Assembly (NCBI GenBank): GCA_001777665.1
Contig: MFEQ01000006.1
Location: 24,309-88,308 of the forward strand
DNA from: Candidatus Doudnabacteria bacterium RIFCSPHIGHO2_02_FULL_42_25
Lineage (GTDB): Bacteria > Patescibacteriota > Doudnabacteria > UBA920 > O2-02-FULL-48-8
DNA length: 64,000 nucleotides
Direction of reading: 5' to 3'
In this document: in pieces, positions 7,743 through 63,627 of the stretch
Layout of the letters: the number at the start of each line of letters is the position of its first letter
Numbering within the stretch: the first letter of the stretch is position 1
Notes under the pieces: generated by a model
The model's input: the letters and a program-made list of their open reading frames with translations, nothing else
Databases searched by the model: none
What the model was told of the DNA's origin: nothing
Translations under genes and position numbers: made by a program

Positions 7743-8066
7743 ATGGAATTAACACTCACAGACGCAAACTTTGAAGCAGAAGTTTTGAAATCAGACAAGC
7801 CCGTACTCGTAGATTTTTGGGCGGAATGGTGCGGTCCATGTAAAATGGTCTCCCCTGCAGTCACACAGCTGGCCGAAGAACTTAAAGACCACATGAAGGT
7901 GGGCAAATTAAACGTGGACGAAAATCCTCAAACCACGCAGAACTATCAAATATTCAGCATCCCGTCATTGAAGATTTATAAGGGTGGAAAAATTATCGGA
8001 GAAATGGTTGGTGCTGCCCCTAAATCAATGATCGAAAAAACTATTCGCGGAATACTCGGAATCTAA
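7743..8066 (+). CDS. trxA: Thioredoxin
   Basis: WCGPCK active site, 107 aa. Confidence 0.9.
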   Translation: MELTLTDANFEAEVLKSDKPVLVDFWAEWCGPCKMVSPAVTQLAEELKDHMKVGKLNVDENPQTTQNYQIFSIPSLKIYKGGKIIGEMVGAAPKSMIEKTIRGILGI

Positions 8067-9751: not shown

Positions 9752-11233
9752 CTAAACATATCCCGGAAAGAAATCACTTTTGATATGTCTCTTGGATACA
9801 CCCATTGATTTTAACAGCTTCTCGAATGCAACAACCATGCCTCGCGGCCCTGAGACATAAAAGGTCCGATCGGACCAAATAGGTAATTCTGCTTCTAATC
9901 GCTTACGGTCAAGTAATCCATCACGATCAGTGACGACATAGATAATTTTAATTCCAAGCTTATTTGCAGCCTCTGACAAAATATCTTTATATGCAATTTC
10001 GCTCTCTGTCTTCACTGAATAGAATAAGACAATATCTCTTTTTTCTTTTTTATCTATGAGGTACTTCACCATACTCCGAAACGGGGTAATACCTATTCCA
10101 CCTGCGATAAATACTAATTTTTTAGTTGTATCTTTGGGTAGTGTAAAATCTCCGGCCAATTGTCCAGCGAGGACGGTTTCACCTGCATTAAGTGACGTTA
10201 GGGTTTGCTTAAAAGTACTGGGTTTATCATAAAATTTAATTCCTAAATCGATATGATCCTCTGTCGGTGATGATGCAATGGTGAAATAACGCCGGTTTCC
10301 TCGCAAATCATCTTTTTTGGTTTTCAAAGTCCATTCTAAATACTGACCGGGTTGGAAATTAATTTTTCGATTTGGAGTAAATTCAAACCCAAATGTCGCT
10401 GGAGCGATTTCTTTTTTTTCTTTCAGCGTCATTTTATATCTTCCCTTGTCAGAAACTAAAAACGAGAAAATGTTTCCTAAGACTAGAGCTAACTCTGGAC
10501 TAGAATACAATGGGCCTATGATAAAATTGGTTCCAGCAATAAACCCAACTATGGCTCCATAAGTAATTCGAAGTTTTCTGTTCGGGGGTGTAGTCAGCGG
10601 TTCGGTTAACATCACAAATGCAAAGTACAGTGTCGAGGAATTGATTAAGGTGCTTTTTATTGCCGACCAAGAATTGGCACCATCGGGAAGAGAAAAAACT
10701 AAACGAATCAAATAGACTATCAAAAAAGATATAACTAAATCAAAATGCTGGAGTTTCCGAGCAATCAGCAATCCTCCGACTATGACAAACGGAACTAAAT
10801 AGATATTGCCGACCCACCAACTAGCACCTTGCTGGATAACTAATAGCGTGGCAATTACAGCAATCGCAGCTGGATTGAATATGTGCTTCCCACGAAAATT
10901 AATAATGTATTTCGCGGCTTGAGAAAAAACAGCGGCCAAAACTACGAACAGCAAATCAGCCCCTGGCGTAATAATCAGAGTCAAAATCGCTGCAGTGATA
11001 TATGCAGATTCATTATTCGTGGGTACTCGAAATATTTTCGAAAAAATCCAGTTTGTAACCAAACAAACGGCAAATAAAATTAGCGACGTTTGAATAATAT
11101 CTAAAGTATCATACGGCACCCAACCAAAAAATGAAAAAATAATCGCTAAGCTGATCAATATAAGCAAAAAGTACAGCATGGCTCTGTACATAGTAATCTT
11201 ATTCAAAAAGCTATCTATGTATGGAACGGTCAT
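9752..11233 (-). CDS. Membrane-bound oxidoreductase: polytopic N-terminal domain fused to FNR-like FAD/NAD(P)-binding domain
   Basis: C-terminal RYFTIASSP (RxYS FAD motif) and GGIGITPFRSM (NAD-binding). About 260-aa hydrophobic N-terminal half. Confidence 0.5.
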   Translation of the reverse strand: MTVPYIDSFLNKITMYRAMLYFLLILISLAIIFSFFGWVPYDTLDIIQTSLILFAVCLVTNWIFSKIFRVPTNNESAYITAAILTLIITPGADLLFVVLAAVFSQAAKYIINFRGKHIFNPAAIAVIATLLVIQQGASWWVGNIYLVPFVIVGGLLIARKLQHFDLVISFLIVYLIRLVFSLPDGANSWSAIKSTLINSSTLYFAFVMLTEPLTTPPNRKLRITYGAIVGFIAGTNFIIGPLYSSPELALVLGNIFSFLVSDKGRYKMTLKEKKEIAPATFGFEFTPNRKINFQPGQYLEWTLKTKKDDLRGNRRYFTIASSPTEDHIDLGIKFYDKPSTFKQTLTSLNAGETVLAGQLAGDFTLPKDTTKKLVFIAGGIGITPFRSMVKYLIDKKEKRDIVLFYSVKTESEIAYKDILSEAANKLGIKIIYVVTDRDGLLDRKRLEAELPIWSDRTFYVSGPRGMVVAFEKLLKSMGVSKRHIKSDFFPGYV

Positions 11234-11965: not shown

Positions 11966-12169
11966 ATGACCAAGAACCATCGAGACGGCGAAAAGTTCGG
12001 GGGTAATCACACTACCCTTCTAGATTTGGCCGTGACGATGGTAGACATCGCGGCCAAGTACTCTGAAGTAAAAACTATTAGTCCGGGCATGCTTCAGGTA
12101 AACCCCAACAAATCCGGCGGATCCCAGCGTGTGAAATTCGCTTGGATGAAGGGGGGGGGCTTCTTATGA
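11966..12169 (+). CDS. GC-rich island 1, ORF1 (67 aa, MTKNHRDGEKFGGNHTTLLDL...), unknown function
   Basis: ATG 8 nt after AAGGAGG. GC-rich codon usage unlike the host. Stop overlaps the next ATG (ttATGA). Confidence 0.5.
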   Translation: MTKNHRDGEKFGGNHTTLLDLAVTMVDIAAKYSEVKTISPGMLQVNPNKSGGSQRVKFAWMKGGGFL

Positions 12170-12312
12170 CCGTTCGGCAAAACCGATCGGTCCAGGAAGT
12201 TCGAGTCTACACGTCGGACACTCAGACGACCATGGTCGCGCTAGCAAGAGCCGCTCGAGACCGAGATATTCCCATCGGGTTTCTGAAGAAGGATAAGACG
12301 CAAACCTACTAG
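12166..12312 (+). CDS. GC-rich island 1, ORF2 (48 aa, MTVRQNRSVQEVRVYTSDTQTTMVALARAARDRDIPIGFLKKDKTQTY), translationally coupled
   Basis: ATGA start/stop overlap with ORF1. Not in ORF track (<60 aa). Confidence 0.45.
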   Translation: MTVRQNRSVQEVRVYTSDTQTTMVALARAARDRDIPIGFLKKDKTQTY

Positions 12313-12329
12313 GCTTGGAGGATACGCAG

Positions 12330-12791
12330 ATGGCAGTCAACGCAATGGGAGCCTCGGCGGTTGCCGAGTTGCTGGGTGACCTGACAGATCGGACGAAGTA
12401 CACTGAGGGGGTCCTGAAAGGGATGCTCGGTGTCATCCGAAACGAAGAGCTGCATCACACGACGATCATCGGCAAGATCGGAATCGTGCCGCTGTCGCTT
12501 GAGCAGCTCAACAAGCTCAAGTACGTGGACGAGGCCAACCAGAAGACGGCATTCGGTTCTGACATCGCCACGGCCATCCGGGCTGAAATGACGCGACGGA
12601 CGAGCATCAAGATCGAATTCGAGTCCCTCTTCCGGACGCTCTACGCCGGCGCAGAGTACGGACCCGAGAAAGTGATGGACGCAATCCAGCGTTACGAGGA
12701 GGCCATGCGCTCGAGCTCGACCTCGTTCGCTCCTCCCCCGCCGGTTCCAACGACGGATAGCAACGACGGCTTCGCGGCACGGACGCACTAA
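12330..12791 (+). CDS. GC-rich island 1, ORF3 (153 aa, MAVNAMGASAVAELLGDL...APPPPVPTTDSNDGFAARTH), unknown function
   Basis: GGAGGA at 12317-12322 precedes ATG 12330. ORF track offers TTG 12315. Pro-rich C-terminal tail. Confidence 0.5.
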   Translation: MAVNAMGASAVAELLGDLTDRTKYTEGVLKGMLGVIRNEELHHTTIIGKIGIVPLSLEQLNKLKYVDEANQKTAFGSDIATAIRAEMTRRTSIKIEFESLFRTLYAGAEYGPEKVMDAIQRYEEAMRSSSTSFAPPPPVPTTDSNDGFAARTH

Positions 12792-12814
12792 TCACCCGCG
12801 TCGTCAGGACGCAC

Positions 12815-12856
12815 AAACGGCGAGCCCAACACTGGGCCCGCCGTTTTTCTTTTGTT
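12815..12856 (+). terminator. Intrinsic terminator of island 1
   Basis: aaacggcgagcccaacactgggcccgccgtttttctttt. Confidence 0.65.
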
Positions 12857-12877
12857 CTATTATCTGTGACACCTGTC

Positions 12878-12909
12878 TTACCTAGTTGCCCATATGGGCA
12901 ACTAGGTAA
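12878..12909. repeat. Perfect 32-bp palindrome ttACCTAGTTGCCCATATGGGCAACTAGGTaa (CATATG-core palindrome family, copy 1)
   Basis: Identical 28-bp core at 49787-49814 and 63554-63581. Variants at 43124-43157 and 62962-62989. Confidence 0.9.
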
Positions 12910-12925: not shown

Positions 12926-12957
12926 CCTCTAATTTCAGCGATCGCTGAAATTAGAGG
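12926..12957. repeat. Perfect 32-bp palindrome cctctaatttcaGCGATCGCtgaaattagagg, immediately 3' of the dnaX stop
   Basis: Self-complementary. Same GCGATCGC core as the palindrome at 43164-43195 and the direct repeats at 56335/57514. Confidence 0.85.
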
Positions 12958-12959
12958 AA

Positions 12960-14444
12960 CTAGTTCTCTACTTCCCCGCCCATAATTTTGAGGGCGGACT
13001 CCACTAACTCATCTTTTTGCTCCACTTGAGCCTCACCTTTTTGTAACGTAGGTTTTACCATCAGTTTCAGTCCCGTCACTTCTTCGATTACTTGATCGAC
13101 AACGATTCGATTCTTACGCGCTTCGATCGCATCTTTATGAAATTTATATGGAAATATCACTACCAGTTCTTTTCCTTCTATAGAAATAGGCTGAGCTAGT
13201 TTTAAACTCGAGATAAGCGAGTGGTTATATTCTTTTAGTTTTTCCAGAATCTGCGGCCAGTGAGCTTGGACTTTGGCAAATAACTCCCCCTCGCCCTCTC
13301 TTACATTAAGAGGGGGTTCCTCTGCTGCTTCATCCCCCCTTAATATAAGGGGGGATTGAGGGGGGTTATTCTCCTCGGTCGCCTCTACTGCGGCTAATTC
13401 AAGTGGCAGACTCTGGATCGATGACCATTTGATTTCACCTTCAGCTTTCTGGAATATCTGAATGATCTGCATAATTCTTGGCAATTCCAAAGCTTGGGCT
13501 TGATCCTTCATCTTCTGTGAAATTTCTTCGGTATAACCAAAATCAGAAGTTGTCCCCACTTTCGTCAACAATATTTTTCGCAAATACTCTAAAAAATCTT
13601 TTTCAAATTGATATAAATCTTTGCCCCCATAAGTCAGATCTGAAATAAAACTCACCGCTTCTTGGGTTTGATTTTCTACGAGCAGATCTAGGAATTTACT
13701 CAAAGTCTTCACGCCTGTTAAACCGAGGACTGTTTCGACTAATTCTTCAGTAATCTCGCCTTCGGCGTAATTCATAACTTGATCGAGTAGTGATAGCCCA
13801 TCTCGAAAACTGCCATCCGCAGCAGTCGCGATTTCCATCAGGGCTCCTTCACTAACTTTGATCTGATTATCGGAAGCCACATATGCGAGATGCTTGCTTA
13901 AATCTGCAATGCCGACTTTTTTAAAATCAAATCGTTGCGTCCGCGAAATAATCGTGGCTGGAACTTTATGAATTTCGGTCGTGGCCAAAATAAATACGGC
14001 ATGACTCGGTGGTTCTTCCAAAGTCTTAAGTAATGCATTAAAAGCGCCTTTTGAAAGCATGTGCACTTCATCGACAATAATCACTTTATATGTGGCCTTA
14101 GTTGGGGCAAATTGCAAATGATCGATCAATTCTCGAATATTATCCACGCCAGTGTGCGACGCCGCATCTATTTCCAGCAAATCTAAACTGGTATTCTCTA
14201 GAAATGGTTTACAGATCTCGCATTCGTTGCAGGGTTCCGAGCCTGTTCTATTCTGACAATTAATAGCCCGCGCAAAAATCCGAGCTAGCGTCGTTTTCCC
14301 GACCCCTCTGGGTCCGGTGAATAAATAAGCGTGGCCCACGCGATTATTGGCGACCGCATTGGCGAGCGTGGTTTTGATGTGTTCCTGATTGACCACGGAA
14401 CCGAAATTCAGTGGCCGATATTTTCTATACAATACTAAGTTCAT
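12960..14444 (-). CDS. dnaX: DNA polymerase III subunit gamma/tau
   Basis: Walker A GPRGVGKTT, clamp-loader motifs. Contains an in-frame GC-rich insertion (about 13290-13375) encoding EENNPPQSPLILRGDEAAEEPPLNVREGEGE. Confidence 0.85.
   Translation of the reverse strand: MNLVLYRKYRPLNFGSVVNQEHIKTTLANAVANNRVGHAYLFTGPRGVGKTTLARIFARAINCQNRTGSEPCNECEICKPFLENTSLDLLEIDAASHTGVDNIRELIDHLQFAPTKATYKVIIVDEVHMLSKGAFNALLKTLEEPPSHAVFILATTEIHKVPATIISRTQRFDFKKVGIADLSKHLAYVASDNQIKVSEGALMEIATAADGSFRDGLSLLDQVMNYAEGEITEELVETVLGLTGVKTLSKFLDLLVENQTQEAVSFISDLTYGGKDLYQFEKDFLEYLRKILLTKVGTTSDFGYTEEISQKMKDQAQALELPRIMQIIQIFQKAEGEIKWSSIQSLPLELAAVEATEENNPPQSPLILRGDEAAEEPPLNVREGEGELFAKVQAHWPQILEKLKEYNHSLISSLKLAQPISIEGKELVVIFPYKFHKDAIEARKNRIVVDQVIEEVTGLKLMVKPTLQKGEAQVEQKDELVESALKIMGGEVEN
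13334..13374. repeat. Copy of the ccccttaatataagggg-ggttag-gaggggttat element embedded in-frame in dnaX
   Basis: ccccccttaatataaggggggattgaggggggttattctcc. Compare 60616-60669 and 21040-21085 (reverse orientation). Confidence 0.65.
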
Positions 14445-19967: not shown

Positions 19968-21017
19968 TTAATTCGCGAATTTAAAAGTCGAAAGCAATTT
20001 ATTTGCATCAATTAATGCGCCCTCTCCACCATTATAAACATCTAAGTTAATCTCATTATCTTCTCCCCAACTTGATGGGTAATTCGTTAGTTGAATTGAA
20101 ATGGTCTCTATGAGCTGGTTCGGGCACTTAATCATTCGCGGGCATTCGTAGCGCTTTGCTGAAAATCCTGCAAATTTAGTTTCTTCGATAGGAACATTCG
20201 CTCCTATGTCGAAAACACTTTCTCTTCCAATATTTTCTGCGGCAATTTCAAATTCTACGTACACGGTACCATTTTCTTCGTTAGCCAAGTAAGCACTCGT
20301 TCTGTCGCCAACTGATCTTACCTGCCAATATTCATTGGGAAAAATAAATTCATACCCATATTTATAACTAATAAACTTTTTATAAAAACCTGTAGTAACT
20401 ATCGAGTACTCATTAATCTTAATAGTCGAAAGGACTGGCAGTATAATTTTAGGGTTACCAGAAAATGTCAAAACATTTTCACCAGATTTAATTTCATAAT
20501 TTCCTGTTTCATGTCCACCTTGACCTCCCGAATAATAAGTAAATTCATAACCGTTTATTGCCTCTTTGTTTACACTTTGTGGGTCAGCCGTATTTAAATA
20601 TGATTCCCAACTAAACCAAAGGTCTATATCTCCCTCGAACAGAGGATTTTCCATCTTTTGTTTAGTCTCGGCTGAAATAAAACCTACTGCGTGAGGATCA
20701 AGATAAATTTCCCAGTCATTGGGATATTTAAACTCAAATCCATATTCGGTATTCGTATAAGTTTTCCAATCTGACGGAACGTCAGATTGCTCCGACCGAA
20801 GCGTCGGAGCAATCTGAGTGATCGCTGCTTCCTTCTTTAACTCATACCACCAATCGACAGAGCCAATCACCACGACAAAAAGCAGGACCCCGATAGTGGT
20901 CCAGAGAACTTTCGTTGTAAATAGTTTTAGTATTTCGTCGAGTTTGTTTTTATTTTCCATTGTGTTTATTTCAATTTTATTCTCCCCCTCGAGGGGGAGA
21001 CAGAACCAAGAATTCAA
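19968..21017 (-). CDS. Membrane-anchored hypothetical protein, paralog 2 (349 aa from ORF-track TTG; an internal ATG near 20961 is an alternative start)
   Basis: Same signal-anchor + APTLRSEQSDVPSDWKTYTNTEYGFEFKYP module as paralog 1. 5' region contains palindrome tctccccctcgagggggaga. Confidence 0.45.
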   Translation of the reverse strand: MNSWFCLPLEGENKIEINTMENKNKLDEILKLFTTKVLWTTIGVLLFVVVIGSVDWWYELKKEAAITQIAPTLRSEQSDVPSDWKTYTNTEYGFEFKYPNDWEIYLDPHAVGFISAETKQKMENPLFEGDIDLWFSWESYLNTADPQSVNKEAINGYEFTYYSGGQGGHETGNYEIKSGENVLTFSGNPKIILPVLSTIKINEYSIVTTGFYKKFISYKYGYEFIFPNEYWQVRSVGDRTSAYLANEENGTVYVEFEIAAENIGRESVFDIGANVPIEETKFAGFSAKRYECPRMIKCPNQLIETISIQLTNYPSSWGEDNEINLDVYNGGEGALIDANKLLSTFKFAN

Positions 21018-21039
21018 CTGCAGTCTAAGGCTTAGGATA

Positions 21040-21085
21040 TAACCCCTCCTAACCTCCCCTTATATTAAGGGGAGGAACAACTGCA
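21040..21085 (-). repeat. gcagttgttcctccccttaatataaggggaggttaggaggggttat element (reverse orientation) in the 5' leader of paralog 2
   Basis: Reverse complement is about 95% identical over about 46 nt to 60616-60669. Confidence 0.75.
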
Positions 21086-26401: not shown

Positions 26402-26508
26402 CGCTCGGAATAAAATTTTTATGCACCGGCCATAAAATTCTGCTGAATTTTTGGCCTACGCGCTCGGTCCGTCGACCTGCGCGAGTTGCTAAAAATTTAT
26501 TCCTCGCT
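26402..26508 (+). ncRNA. Candidate structured RNA (about 105 nt), copy 1 of a two-copy family with compensatory changes
   Basis: Conserved core accggccRtaaaattctgctgaattttYggcctacgcgctcggtccgtcgacctgcgcgagtt. Closing stems differ between copies but are each self-complementary. A/G and T/C substitutions maintain a base pair in the ggccRtaaaattc hairpin. Confidence 0.45.
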
Positions 26509-43163: not shown

Positions 43164-43195
43164 AACATAAAAGGTGCGATCGCACCTTTTATGTT
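43164..43195. repeat. Perfect 32-bp palindrome aacataaaaggtGCGATCGCaccttttatgtt
   Basis: Self-complementary. Paired with the preceding palindrome exactly as at 12878/12926. Confidence 0.85.
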
Positions 43196-56370: not shown

Positions 56371-56960
56371 ATTCTTTTTACAGCTTCAATGAACATTTTG
56401 TTAGTATCGTCAGATACAATTATGAGCCCTCGCACTATTCTTCTGTATGCAGGATCATCGGATTGGCCTCTTCCTCTCGTTATATGATCGAAGCCTCCTA
56501 CTGCAGTCACTAAAATCCAAGGATTGTGCTCTTCCACATCAGGTAATTCATGCCGGTGCTCATTGAAATCCCGACGGTATTCATCTAACCGTAACTGCAG
56601 TAATTTATCCCAATCGATCAAGAATTTCTCCTCAATCCCGAAAGATTTTAAAATTTCTTTGTATGCAGTGAGAATTCCATTTTTTACTTCTTTCAAATAC
56701 TCCCTAAAAAAATCTTCGTGAAAATTAATCAGTGTTTCAGTTTGAAAATAGACTAAACAGAGCGCCGTGACTACTAATTCATTAAAGATCCGATCTTGTT
56801 CAGTTTGGGATAACGAGTCAAAATTAATTTCGCTTCTAAAATCTATATTTCGAAATAAGTCAAAAGCTGACTTTATTGCCTTCATAGTAATGGCCACAGT
56901 ATCTTTTGCCGAATTTGGAGGACCGTAAACAAGTTTTCTGAACATAAAATAGAGTCTCAC
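56367..56960 (-). CDS. Hypothetical protein (197 aa) with possible HEPN-like Rx4H motif (RRDFNEH)
   Basis: ORF. The motif call is weak pattern-matching only. Confidence 0.3.
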   Translation of the reverse strand: MRLYFMFRKLVYGPPNSAKDTVAITMKAIKSAFDLFRNIDFRSEINFDSLSQTEQDRIFNELVVTALCLVYFQTETLINFHEDFFREYLKEVKNGILTAYKEILKSFGIEEKFLIDWDKLLQLRLDEYRRDFNEHRHELPDVEEHNPWILVTAVGGFDHITRGRGQSDDPAYRRIVRGLIIVSDDTNKMFIEAVKRI

Positions 56961-56965
56961 TACGC

Positions 56966-57514
56966 CTAATTGTGCGATCGTGTATTTTGCGTAGAATCAA
57001 ACAGCATTCTGCCTTCTAGGATATTAACATTTAATTCTACTTGTAATTCTTTTAATAGCTCTTTAAATTCTGGTAGTAGCTCCCAAGGTCCGATAAAAAC
57101 ACTCTTTTGCAACATCATAAAGCCGTTTTGAATTAAAAATCGTCTTAAAAATTGTCTGGCTTTTTTCTTTTCTTCGGGGATATCAAACATAACTAGAGTT
57201 GAAAATCCGTTATTCTTTGCCCTTCTCAACTTTCTTGAGTATATATATTTCAAACTCCTTGCCCGCCCTAAATTCGTTATCTGATAGTATGTTTTTCTTT
57301 CTTTTTTGATTTTTTTTACTAAGCCATCTCTGTCTAGTTCCCAAAAAGCTCTGGAAATTTTATAGCGATCATAATATTTAAGCCTTTTGATATATTGATA
57401 CTTGCCTTCAAAAGGATAAGGAATCAGCTCCCCCATATCGCGCAAAAACCAAAGCAATTCTCCAGTAATTGTCTTTAGACGCTTCTTGATTTTTCTTTTG
57501 GTAGTACGTTTCAT
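56966..57514 (-). CDS. wHTH + Cas2-like (VapD/Cas2 fold) protein, paralog A
   Basis: C-terminal half LVMFDIPEEKKKARQFLRRFLIQNGFMMLQKSVFIGPWE matches the Cas2 signature (V.YD.s....R..l...L...G.r.Q.SVF). Basic N-terminal domain. Paralog at 62995-63546. Confidence 0.4.
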   Translation of the reverse strand: MKRTTKRKIKKRLKTITGELLWFLRDMGELIPYPFEGKYQYIKRLKYYDRYKISRAFWELDRDGLVKKIKKERKTYYQITNLGRARSLKYIYSRKLRRAKNNGFSTLVMFDIPEEKKKARQFLRRFLIQNGFMMLQKSVFIGPWELLPEFKELLKELQVELNVNILEGRMLFDSTQNTRSHN

Positions 57515-57549
57515 ACGTATTTTACGCGATCGCGCATTTTACGTATTAT
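57514..57549 (+). repeat. 36-bp direct repeat (right copy) tacgtattttacGCGATCGCgcattttacgtattat
   Basis: See 56335-56370. Confidence 0.8.
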
Positions 57550-57556
57550 AGCAAAT

Positions 57557-60615: not shown

Positions 60616-60669
60616 GCAGTTGTTCCTCCCCTTAATATAAGGGGAGGTTAGGAGGGGTTATTCATAAGG
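60616..60669 (+). repeat. gcagttgttcctccccttaatataaggggaggttaggaggggttattc element in the 5' leader of the BNR-repeat gene
   Basis: See 21040-21085 and 13334-13374. Confidence 0.75.
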
Positions 60670-61509: not shown

Positions 61510-61650
61510 TATACGTTGCACATTTCGTGCACAAGGAGGATAAGATGCAACCTTTACGTAGTTAGATTTTGAACTCACTGCAGAAGAGTGCTTATAACTT
61601 CAGATAATCCTGTCTGATCCACTCTTCTGCTAACAGCAGAGGAGAGGGTC

Positions 61651-62265
61651 ATGATCAGGAACATCGCAGACGCGTCAGAACAGTACCACAACGCCGTCAA
61701 CGCCTGCCGCGAGGTCTTCGCGGCGGCCGAGCGCGAATTCGTAGAGCCGAAGGGCGTGAAAGCCCACATCGAGGAAGCGCGGCGGCTCTACGCGGAACTG
61801 GGTGACGAGGCGTCAGCCGTGAAAGAGGTGGACAATGCAAGGCAGTGGCTGATCGGGATCGCCGGGAAGTTCTTGCGCGGTGCGGTCGAGTTCTTCGGCG
61901 ACCGCATCTACGAGCTCTCCTACATGTCGCTCGACCGCGACATCGTCGAGAACATGCAGGCTAGGTTGCGCGAGTACGAGGAAGCAGTGCGCGTCGGCGA
62001 AGCCAGCAGCTTCGAGGTACGACTCACCGCATACAAAAAACTCGCGACCGTGGTCAACGGCGCGCGCACGGAGCAGCAGCGGCGCATCGAGCACCGCGAG
62101 AAGCTGGCGCAGGAACGCGCTGAACGGGAGCAACACGAACGTCGGCGGCGTCGGGAGGAAGAAGCCGAGGCCGATCGCGTTCGAGCGAAGCAGCAACAGG
62201 AGGCTGCTGAGGCTGCGGCGCGCGAGGAACGCGCGAAGCAGTTCGACGAGCTCTTCGGAGCTTAG
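61651..62265 (+). CDS. GC-rich island ORF (204 aa) with highly charged C-terminal helix (ERAEREQHERRRRREEEAEADRVRAKQQQEAAE)
   Basis: ATG 6 nt after GAGAGGG. GC-rich. Confidence 0.5.
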   Translation: MIRNIADASEQYHNAVNACREVFAAAEREFVEPKGVKAHIEEARRLYAELGDEASAVKEVDNARQWLIGIAGKFLRGAVEFFGDRIYELSYMSLDRDIVENMQARLREYEEAVRVGEASSFEVRLTAYKKLATVVNGARTEQQRRIEHREKLAQERAEREQHERRRRREEEAEADRVRAKQQQEAAEAAAREERAKQFDELFGA

Positions 62266-62267
62266 GG

Positions 62268-62308
62268 GGTCCCTAGGGGTGTGGCACACAGGTGCCCGCC
62301 CCTTTTTC
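62268..62308 (+). terminator. Intrinsic terminator
   Basis: GC hairpin ...ggcacacaggtgcccgcccctttttc. Confidence 0.55.
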
Positions 62309-62323
62309 ATTTCCAGGTTAGGG

Positions 62324-62352
62324 TTGACAGTGGCCTCAAAATCTTATATACT
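62324..62352 (+). promoter_or_regulatory. Sigma70-like promoter (TTGACA-17-TATACT) with about 170-nt structured leader
   Basis: TTGACA 62324-62329, TATACT 62347-62352. Leader hairpins gcggcaacttcgccgc and ccgctcgcgg. AGGAGG 62514-62519. Confidence 0.5.
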
Positions 62353-62525
62353 GTTAAGCTTTAAACGGAGAAAGTTTCGTTAGCCCTGTCTGCTAAGCGA
62401 AACGGGAAAAGCAACTCAAAAAGAGCGAACGCAAGATCATATCAAACAAGTAACTCTAATTGAATGCAGCTTCGCGGCAACTTCGCCGCAAGTTTACCCG
62501 TCCGCTCGCGGACAGGAGGTCAACC

Positions 62526-62888
62526 ATGCCTGACCCACAGGACATGGACCCCACGGTCGCTCAGTTCGCTGAGGACCTGAAGTACACCCAGTGCCACGCT
62601 GAGGTTCACTACCTCAGTGTGGATGGGACGCCCCGGATGCTACGGTTCCACCCGTGGACATCCGTACTTGTCGAAGTCTCTGAGGACTGCCTAAAGGTGG
62701 TCGAGAGATTCGATAAGCGCCCCGGGGAAACCTGGAGCGAGAAGACGACGGTGATCGAGCTGAATAAGCTCTTGATCGCCAAACTCTTCGACTGCGAGGG
62801 ATGTGAACGATGCGACGACAAAGGGTCGGGCGCATTGTGGACATTCTTGCAGGGGCAACGTTCTAGGAGTACTTGGGGGTACTGTTAG
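62526..62888 (+). CDS. GC-rich island ORF (120 aa, MPDPQDMDPTVAQFAEDL...CEGCERCDD), unknown; C-terminal Cys cluster
   Basis: ATG 6 nt after AGGAGG. ORF track gives upstream ATG 62460, which lacks an SD. Confidence 0.5.
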   Translation: MPDPQDMDPTVAQFAEDLKYTQCHAEVHYLSVDGTPRMLRFHPWTSVLVEVSEDCLKVVERFDKRPGETWSEKTTVIELNKLLIAKLFDCEGCERCDDKGSGALWTFLQGQRSRSTWGYC

Positions 62889-62896
62889 AATAAACA

Positions 62897-62932
62897 CCCG
62901 GGCGACACGCAGTGTCCCCGGGTTTTTCTTTT
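62897..62932 (+). terminator. Intrinsic terminator (cccgggcgacacgcagtgtccccggg + T-run)
   Basis: Near-perfect stem with 1-nt bulge, then tttttctttt. Confidence 0.7.
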
Positions 62933-62961
62933 CCCCAATTCCTTACACATACCAACCTTTT

Positions 62962-62989
62962 TACCTAGTTGGCCATATGGGCATTTAGG
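62962..62989. repeat. Degenerate copy of the CATATG-core palindrome (acctagttgGccatatgggcaTTtaggt)
   Basis: Three substitutions relative to the perfect copies. Lies between the GC island and the Cas2-like gene. Confidence 0.7.
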
Positions 62990-62994
62990 TAAAG

Positions 62995-63546: not shown

Positions 63547-63553
63547 ATTCTAT

Positions 63554-63581
63554 ACCTAGTTGCCCATATGGGCAACTAGGT
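63554..63581. repeat. Perfect 28-bp palindrome ACCTAGTTGCCCATATGGGCAACTAGGT (copy 3), 8 nt upstream of the Cas2-like gene start
   Basis: Identical to copies 1 and 2. Confidence 0.9.
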
Positions 63582-63627
63582 TACGGGTGTACCCAGTTGT
63601 TCACTTATTAAAAAGACTTGTTCTTAA

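Follow-up and report, generated by a model that had tools for sequence, protein, structure and literature searches.

Intrastrand-triplex-class repeats in a Candidatus Doudnabacteria genome as probable gene-less derivatives of DUF559 endonuclease cassettes

Introduction

The repeats known as BoxC, PIT (potential intrastrand triplex) or TM_ECO elements have been described in Escherichia coli, and more than 260 genomes contain their motif (Hoyne et al. 2000; Holder et al. 2015, PMC4666352). The consensus of TM_ECO reads CCCTCNCCC N3-6 GGGNGAGGG N3 GGGNGAGGG, with a second loop that is either TTA (type A) or CCG (type B). The 23 copies of E. coli K-12, whose inverted pairs always join a type A with a type B, have been described as always intergenic; no promoter or terminator activity has been found for them, they are linked to locus variability, and their triplex has been seen in vitro by circular dichroism and nuclear magnetic resonance (NMR) (PMC4666352). 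Here, we have analysed a repeat of this class in 64,000 nt of Candidatus Doudnabacteria bacterium RIFCSPHIGHO2_02_FULL_42_25 (contig MFEQ01000006.1, positions 24,309 to 88,308; this whole stretch is referred to as “the window”), a bacterium of the candidate phyla radiation (CPR), together with the relation of the repeat family to genes that encode DUF559 endonucleases.

The repeat of the window agrees with the BoxC/PIT/TM elements in having a pyrimidine arm, a complementary purine arm and a G-rich third block under purine-motif rules, in its short loops, in the TTA second loop of type A and in an A-to-T substitution of the tail; both groups are dispersed on both strands, form inverted pairs of two unit types and occupy variable intergenic sites, and in the window this dispersal is seen in four units, two of which form an inverted dimer inside dnaX. 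What is shared with the TM_ECO consensus is only the architecture and the TTA second loop, while the arm sequences differ (CCTCCCCTTA and CCCCCTCTTA here, CCCTCNCCC in E. coli) and the top of the hairpin is TTA-NNN-TAA. Further differences are the host, i.e. a CPR bacterium with 40% GC, the location of copies in frame within genes, as opposed to always between them, and the occurrence of the family in phage contigs and beside DUF559 genes. The class itself is already known; the phylum, the arm sequences and the insertions in coding regions are new here.

Results

Copies of the repeat in the window

The 46-nt string GCAGTTGTTCCTCCCCTTAATATAAGGGGAGGTTAGGAGGGGTTAT has exactly two matches in the window, one on each strand (units A and B, Table 1), and none in 100 dinucleotide-preserving shuffles; the flanks of the two copies are unrelated. 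A sequence-only reading of this stretch had proposed a near-identical repeat of 46-50 nt at 60616-60669, with a reverse copy at 21040-21085 and a single diverged, in-frame copy at 13334-13374 within dnaX. The repeat is real and 46 nt are identical, but the identity ends at 60661, with 60662-60669 being flank; the inverted copy exists, but at 21039-21084; the dnaX sequence is in frame and diverged, but it consists of two units, X1 and X2. The label “paralog 2”, which had been given to the gene located 3' of the 21-kb copy, has been dropped, since its protein is PsbP_2-like and not a BNR paralogue. When a covariance model of 53 members of the family is applied to the 64 kb with filters off, exactly these four units score above noise.

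In a unit, a pyrimidine arm and the purine arm that follows it enclose a 3-nt loop of free sequence, and a short linker (TTA) joins the purine arm to a G-rich tail with TTA(T) at its end. Units A and B read CCTCCCCTTA-ATA-TAAGGGGAGG-TTA-GGAGGGGTT, with a hairpin of 10 bp and about -17 kcal/mol; the 39-nt form of the unit is GTTCCTCCCCTTAATATAAGGGGAGGTTAGGAGGGGTTAT.

The mirror rule and the predicted triplex

The tail of each unit mirrors its purine arm, the pairs being TAAGGGGAGG with GGAGGGG, TAAGGGGGGA with AGGGGGG and TAAGAGGGGG with GGGGGAG. Units A and B contain all three blocks of the class, the pyrimidines, the purines complementary to them and a third block that mirrors the purines, with 3-nt loops that agree with the 1-6 nt of the class, and their purine-motif triads (C-G.G, T-A.A, T-A.T), as read from the sequence, are canonical in 9/9 cases. 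In a set of 84 units, the position of the interruption agrees between arm and tail in 78, and the mean mirror match is 6.67/7, compared with 5.61 +/- 0.08 for shuffled pairings (0/2000 shuffles were as high). The alignment of 53 sequences has a hairpin that is 99.8% paired, with four covarying pairs, while the comparison of the 5' arm with the tail in the parallel register gives 44 double-change cells versus 14.2 +/- 4.6 after shuffling (0/500), with slid controls reaching at most 7. The 3-nt linker can be replaced by nested perfect hairpins of variable sequence, and therefore the tail must fold back to the hairpin within a single strand. Over hundreds of copies from CPR bacteria, other phyla and phage contigs, the two arms and the tail covary in register. 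The three-block structure is under selection.

Mirror repeats of this sort obey the established pairing rules of an intramolecular triplex, of the purine motif on the G-strand and of the pyrimidine motif on the C-strand. In the predicted fold, a single strand would fold back twice, the triads of the G-strand triplex being those of the purine motif (G.G-C, A.A-T, T.A-T) and those of the C-strand triplex being of the pyrimidine motif; such a triplex may form in vivo.

Other folds have also been compared with the sequences. An extended hairpin with pairing between two tails has been rejected: in two-tailed units, the tails are non-complementary at the interruption in 24/24 cases of class I (CCTCCCC arm) and in 5/6 of class III (CCCCCTC arm), i.e. 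in 29/30, and the linkers are non-complementary in 22/24 and stay unpaired. An alternative in which tail and 5' arm form Watson-Crick pairs has been rejected too, since the mirror arrangement would suit it less than an inverted one. An intramolecular G-quadruplex has been rejected as well, given only two long G-runs per unit and the exclusion of a quadruplex by NMR for TM_ECO (Holder et al.).

The perfect palindrome CCTCCCCTTA..TAAGGGGAGG, located near gene boundaries, could be taken for an operator in duplex DNA that is bound by a dimeric regulator, but the loop and linker vary freely, the arms change by compensatory substitution, the spacing of hairpin and tail tolerates nested hairpins of 10-25 nt, which a duplex site would not, copies occur within open reading frames (ORFs), and the mirror repeat lacks the two-fold symmetry that a dimer would require; we consider an operator most improbable.

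Coupling to DUF559 endonuclease genes

Clustering of all ORFs in the 120 metagenome loci among the matches listed has revealed that the most recurrent neighbour of the units is a gene for a DUF559 protein of about 120 aa (PF04480, E ~1e-35), which is bracketed by units in L001, L117, L172, L195, L206 and L215. The G-tail of the upstream unit or dimer is located 0-20 nt before the DUF559 start codon, and in L206 the terminal TTATGA supplies the ATG itself; the 3' end of the gene enters a unit made of a C-tail and a hairpin, from which its last residues and stop codon are read. The upstream G-tail acts as the Shine-Dalgarno (SD) sequence of the DUF559 gene, and to this extent, for the gene-bearing relatives only, the sequence-only idea of a ribosome-binding site (RBS) within the repeat has been upheld.

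The same arrangement is found in an independent set of 80 loci from viral contigs, chosen by the DUF559 protein alone: a perfect pyrimidine/purine hairpin is present within 220 nt upstream of the gene in 44/60, downstream in 36/45 and on both sides in 28/43, the density of hairpins being 4.5/kb near the DUF559 gene versus 0.40/kb elsewhere. These hairpins fall into at least 10 sequence classes; exact mirror tails (51) exceed exact direct copies (11), and the tails face the gene, being on the proximal side of the hairpin in 31/43 and 26/41 cases versus the distal side in 9/43 and 10/41.

In a sibling Doudnabacteria metagenome-assembled genome (MAG; GCA_001779925.1, MFEK01000016.1; locus L299, 3780-4480), a DUF559 homologue is situated between two tRNA (or tRNA-like) genes. 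It is preceded by CCCCTCTTA-AGC-TAAGAGGGG-TTA-GGGGAGTTAA, which is followed after 7 nt by a TTG start codon, and it ends inside AACTCCTCC-TAG-CCTCCCCTTA-GCC-TAAGGGGAGG; these units share the TTA-NNN-TAA sub-family with those of the window. Just upstream, there are more pyrimidine/purine hairpins with mirror tails (TCTCCCCCTCATGAGGGGGAGA + AGAGGGGG; ACCCCTCC..GGAGGGGT), and a hairpin with a mirror tail that adjoins the cassette is near-identical to TCTCCCCCTCGAGGGGGAGA, a tail-less palindrome close to unit B. The predicted bracketing of DUF559 by units is confirmed in this sibling MAG.

In E. coli K-12 (NC_000913.3, 1351040-1351830; L303), a degenerate TM-like hairpin forms the end of ycjD, a gene with the annotation DUF559. 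Farther downstream, at 168 nt, TM_ECO no. 9 (Holder Table 1) follows a degenerate second copy of the ycjD 3' end; the chance expectation of this adjacency is roughly estimated at about 0.003. GC-rich intermediates beside DUF559 genes suggest a continuum between the family described here and TM_ECO. Across these many lineages, the DUF559 family is physically coupled to the repeat family.

Some of the loci have features of their own. The median number of places at which a 78-nt segment of the ycjD locus occurs in an E. coli genome is 15. In L206 (3500-4500) and L117 (4240-4860), the DUF559 genes stand beside arrays that combine many units from different classes, and the gene of L117 has identical dimers in direct orientation on its two sides; this layout suggests tandem cassettes or arrangements that resemble circle junctions.

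For the DUF559 domain, matches have been found among phage “homing endonuclease” PHROGs and with PDB 3HRL; it has been grouped with Vsr and with the homing endonuclease I-Bth0305I (PMC3424549), and DUF559 genes are enriched among genes flanked by inverted repeats (PMC9881135). In the searchable literature, we have found no paper that links DUF559 to repeats of this kind, and nothing relevant on the repeat's sequence strings or on CPR repeats.

The units could also be preferred insertion targets of DUF559 cassettes, as repetitive extragenic palindromes (REPs) are for some insertion sequences, in which case the window copies would never have been parts of a cassette. This would agree with the excess of gene-less over gene-bearing units (more than 20 to 1 among the matches listed), with the several unrelated palindromes that colonise the same spacers and with the different hairpin classes at the ends of cassettes. 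In many lineages, however, the units themselves contain the DUF559 start codon, SD sequence, last codons and stop codon, and the tails consistently face the gene, which argues for co-evolution of gene and units and not for random targeting; as an account of the window copies, targeting is quite unlikely.

Distribution of the family and spread between sites

Pattern scans have found 9 loci in genomes (mostly Ca. Doudnabacteria, other Patescibacteria and one deltaproteobacterial genome), 14 and 69 loci in viral contigs, and at least 120 metagenome loci, with GC 0.33-0.63 among the matches listed; they are regarded as homologues because the tail and the TTAT, which are outside the search pattern, are also conserved. 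The commonest larger form is a dimer of about 90 nt, composed of two different units with their tails outward, as in dnaX, which ends in ATAAC...GTTAT, often TCATAAC...GTTATGA. Solo units have only one such end, and a target duplication is inseparable from the conserved termini of the dimer. The unit-bearing phage-like contigs carry tailed-phage structural modules; the assignment of the small phage contigs to the single-stranded DNA Microviridae has been rejected, since they encode HK97-like capsid and portal proteins.

The family has been copied to unrelated sites in both orientations, where it occupies intergenic 3' spacers and, in Doudnabacteria, in-frame positions within housekeeping genes; intergenic copies favour 3' ends (11 convergent versus 2 divergent). 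The junction of holB and the BNR gene, which contains unit A in the window, is an empty site with a 4-nt gene overlap in L093, carries a GTAG-tagged palindrome of a separate family in L094 (about 9934-10000) and a different palindrome, ATTCCCGCTTTCGCGGGAAT, in L095 (about 7777-7826); the conserved flank G(G/C)YTAAT(T)CCT precedes each insert. For unit B, no orthologous site was found among the loci retrieved. Similarity located 3' of the 46-mer (TCATAAGGATTAGGCTGC) has been rejected as a part of the element, being conserved orthologous flank. The suggestion that the repeat is mobile has thus been supported by identical copies with unrelated flanks in both orientations, by homologues in many genomes and phage contigs and by a junction that is empty or differently filled in relatives; the search for other copies, which the same reading had called for, has returned homologous units from many genomes, viral contigs and metagenomes.

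The dnaX insert and other copies within genes

In the window, dnaX is located at 12960-14444 on the minus strand, and X1, a 12-nt spacer and X2 form a head-to-head dimer of about 90 nt, translated in frame as NNPPQSPLILRGDEAAEEPPLNVREGEGEL in the linker just after DnaX domain III, where a CCCCCTC-type unit is paired with a CCCCCC-type unit. Five genomes share the same dimer at the orthologous site, with four different variants of hairpin 1, each of which has its matched tail, and at a Watson-Crick mismatch in L096 it is the purine arm that the tail follows. The linker is polymorphic: element-derived peptides are found in some orthologues of 64-78% identity, about half of the orthologues are without the element, and the latter often bear peptides from other repeat families. 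Further in-frame copies occur in ValS-like, PurL-like, PrmC-like and TrmB-like ORFs, whose identities were confirmed with Pfam.

The DnaX linker (13270-13400; orthologues P0002-P0070) and the holB-BNR spacer are both colonised by several unrelated palindromic families, with the peptide signatures ASEAKQS.., VILNEVKDLK.., FRPPQDGNLKVSAT and VIPAKAGIQ; their DNA forms include the GTAG-tagged, REPIN-like palindrome and ATTCCCGCTTTCGCGGGAAT.

In 5/5 dnaX orthologues, a TGA in the -1 frame occurs within three codons after hairpin 1, and L092 (5600-5680; dnaX of GCA_964405805.1) has an arrangement that resembles the tau/gamma frameshift site of E. coli dnaX, at an equivalent position, i.e. an A8 run (A AAA AAA), AGC TGA in the -1 frame and a strong hairpin (hairpin 2) 9 nt downstream. 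The units could accordingly be read as cis-acting RNA structures that stabilise mRNA 3' ends or block processing, as REPs do, and that stimulate pausing or frameshifting at the tau/gamma junction of dnaX; the preference of intergenic copies for 3' ends, the strength of the hairpin, and the retention of the dimer exactly after domain III, with compensatory changes at 64-78% identity, point in the same direction. Against this, the units occur in both orientations relative to transcription; purine-motif triplexes are not formed in RNA (PMC4666352), which would leave the covariation of the tail unexplained for transcripts of the G-form; there is no U-tract, no terminator or promoter consensus and no Rfam match; no slippery run or heptamer is found in the window dnaX (13331-13360 region); and about half of the dnaX orthologues do without the element. 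We consider an RNA function of this kind unlikely.

Gene context of the intergenic units

Unit A is located in a 74-nt spacer between a holB-like gene (stop 60684) and the BNR lipoprotein gene (ATG 60609), ending 6 nt from the ATG, and the mRNA-sense strand bears its C-rich form. Unit B is located between a gene of 141 aa (stop 21089) and the PsbP_2-like gene (likely ATG 20960), 78 nt from the latter start, and the mRNA-sense strand bears its G-rich form: the four flanking genes are all on the minus strand and the two units are mutually inverted relative to transcription, so that the C-rich form would be present in one transcript and the G-rich form in the other.

The sequence-only reading had further suggested a leader or RBS module and asked whether its GGAGG serves as an SD sequence. 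On this view, taken here in the form of an oriented module, the GGAGG motifs would be SD sites, or form a translational operator, of the BNR lipoprotein and PsbP_2-like genes. Both copies are indeed located upstream of gene starts, and the relatives described above, i.e. the G-tails 0-20 nt before DUF559 starts (GGGGAG, 7 nt and TTG in L299) and the ATG of DUF559 provided by TTATGA in L206, would agree with such a role. The opposite orientations of A and B speak against it, as does the spacing: the only sense-strand GGAGG of copy A is 15 nt from the BNR ATG, not 17-22 nt as had been noted, and is paired within an arm of the 10-bp stem, while the repeat and tail of B are 78 nt from the start codon; at neither unit is there an accessible sense-strand motif 5-10 nt upstream of a start. 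SD motifs are moreover rare here: 49/61 long ORFs of the window have none, and many genes carry a TATAAT-like hexamer 6-10 nt before the ATG (e.g. 61451, 55651, 11888, 11233, 23270), which suggests that the mRNAs of the window are mostly leaderless or have very short leaders. The family has no orientation rule either, with the tail pointing toward a gene start about as often as toward a gene end. An SD function of the embedded GGAGG has been rejected for these two genes, and the module as a whole is very unlikely. The terminal TTATG has likewise been rejected as a general start codon: it opens a long ORF in only 22/153 cases, which is below the rate of control ATGs.

Scans of units A and B have found no promoter consensus and no intrinsic terminator, with no T-run after the unit on either strand; Rfam, searched with gathering thresholds over the whole window and permissively at both loci, has returned only a tRNA and noise.

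Feature coordinates and other repeats of the window

The coordinates of the units and of other palindromes are listed in Table 1. The tail-less palindrome TCTCCCCCTCGAGGGGGAGA is possibly a degenerate relative of the units.

Table 1. Units of the repeat family, their parts, and other palindromes in the window (CM, covariance model).
Feature	Position	Strand	Basis or remark
Unit A, 46-nt exact repeat	60616-60661	+	exact string match, CM
Unit A, 5' spacer GCAGTTGTT	60616-60624	+	
Unit A, pyrimidine arm CCTCCCCTTA	60625-60634	+	
Unit A, loop ATA	60635-60637	+	
Unit A, purine arm TAAGGGGAGG	60638-60647	+	
Unit A, linker TTA	60648-60650	+	
Unit A, mirror tail GGAGGGG	60651-60657	+	
Unit A, terminal TTAT	60658-60661	+	
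Unit B, identical to A, inverted	21039-21084 (hairpin 21053-21075)	-	exact match, CM
Unit X2, inside dnaX, TCCCCCCTTA-ATA-TAAGGGGGGA-TT-GAGGGGGG-TTAT	13331-13369	+	CM, 62 bits
Unit X1, inside dnaX, minus-strand reading CCCCCTCTTA-ATG-TAAGAGAGGG-CGA-GGGGGAG-TTAT	13280-13318	-	CM, 48 bits
Tail-less pyrimidine/purine palindrome TCTCCCCCTCGAGGGGGAGA	20981-21000	.	38 nt from unit B; CM weak, 7.8 bits
Palindrome TACCTAGTTGCCCATATGGGCAACTAGGTA, 31 nt, perfect	12879-12909, 49786-49816, 62962-62992, 63553-63583		
Perfect palindromes centred on GCGATCGC, HIP1-like core	12926-12957, 43164-43195, 56335-56371, 57514-57550		

In each of two GC-rich islands, at 12000-12870 and 61600-62950 (GC 0.55-0.67 versus 0.40), the end is marked by a copy of the palindrome TACCTAGTTGCCCATATGGGCAACTAGGTA. 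The ORFs of the islands (12315-12791, 61651-62265 and 62460-62888) have SD motifs and no Pfam match, and the islands look like foreign insertions bounded by a separate repeat family. The palindromes centred on GCGATCGC are a further palindromic repeat family of the same small genome. In addition, a direct repeat of 155 nt (2518-2672 and 52355-52509, 97% identical) spans the upstream region and the start of two minus-strand genes (ATGs 2525 and 52362), and an inverted repeat of 63 nt (26425-26487 and 55710-55772, 97% complementary) has 29 kb between its copies.

Discussion

[quoted passage not shown] According to this reading, both the solo units and the dnaX dimer would descend from such cassettes; they would have been spread by a DUF559 nuclease that acts on a folded or mismatched structure, or by repair of the homing type, where the recognised structure would be the triplex or the mismatch at which two tails meet. 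The window units would not regulate the adjacent genes, and they would be tolerated because two of them occupy 3' spacers, with the dnaX insert being translated as a flexible linker.

Several observations weigh against this reading. No DUF559 gene has been found in the 64-kb window by tblastn, and the window copies can therefore be gene-less derivatives at most. The tails of gene-less dimers point outward while those of a cassette point inward, i.e. the dimer has the layout of a right end fused with a left end, which a simple internal deletion does not give. The number of copies is low (four units per 64 kb), unlike that of high-copy REPs or MITEs, in 115 kb of other Doudnabacteria DNA units occur only at dnaX, and no target-site duplication or exact insertion boundary is definable; the dnaX dimer, which is strongly conserved among orthologues, could have a local function and not be a passenger. 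The DUF559 loci of the viral contigs are phylogenetically clustered, and their counts are not independent events. As for the fold, about 40% of class-III tails bear a C opposite an A-T pair, which is a non-canonical triad, and the TM_ECO triplex was undetected in vivo by dimethyl sulfate footprinting; TM_ECO has also been reported to have no association with mobile elements (PMC4666352).

Among other known systems, the REP/REPIN-RAYT elements resemble the present family in being short GC-rich palindromes that occupy 3' intergenic spacers as singlets and inverted doublets, with a dedicated single-copy nuclease gene that is flanked by repeats. They differ in that the units described here lack a GTAG or CGTC tetranucleotide at the base of the palindrome, have low copy number and are found in several phyla, and in that the associated gene encodes a Vsr-like PD-(D/E)XK protein (DUF559) instead of an HUH Y1 transposase; REPs, moreover, have no mirror-tail (triplex) rule. 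The Rickettsia palindromic elements (RPEs) are likewise palindromic repeats located in frame in housekeeping genes and translated in tolerant regions, but they are unrelated in sequence, measure about 100-150 bp and belong to one lineage, and they are not known to be associated with a nuclease gene. Free-standing homing endonuclease genes of phages, such as that of I-Bth0305I, share with the DUF559 cassettes a small nuclease gene that is located between conserved genes and has its own expression signals, while classical homing endonuclease genes lack structured inverted ends and many gene-less copies.

On a wider scale, we put forward, as a tentative proposal to which we give somewhat less than even odds, that BoxC/PIT/TM repeats are the structured ends and gene-less derivatives of widespread, undescribed selfish cassettes of DUF559 (YcjD-like, Vsr-related) nucleases, whose substrate would be the fold or the tail-tail mismatch, and that such elements have colonised coding linkers in CPR bacteria. 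Enterobacteria, cyanobacteria and pathogens are rich in intrastrand-triplex repeats, which mark unstable loci, and their origin and function have been open since the 1990s, while DUF559/YcjD is a very common orphan nuclease family. The coupling of the two, if it holds, would give both a testable role and is the result that matters most here, with YcjD and the TM_ECO copies of E. coli K-12 as an immediate experimental system. In the CPR, the repeats written into essential proteins (DnaX, ValS, PurL, PrmC) bear on annotation, on alignments and on the tolerance of selfish DNA in reduced genomes.

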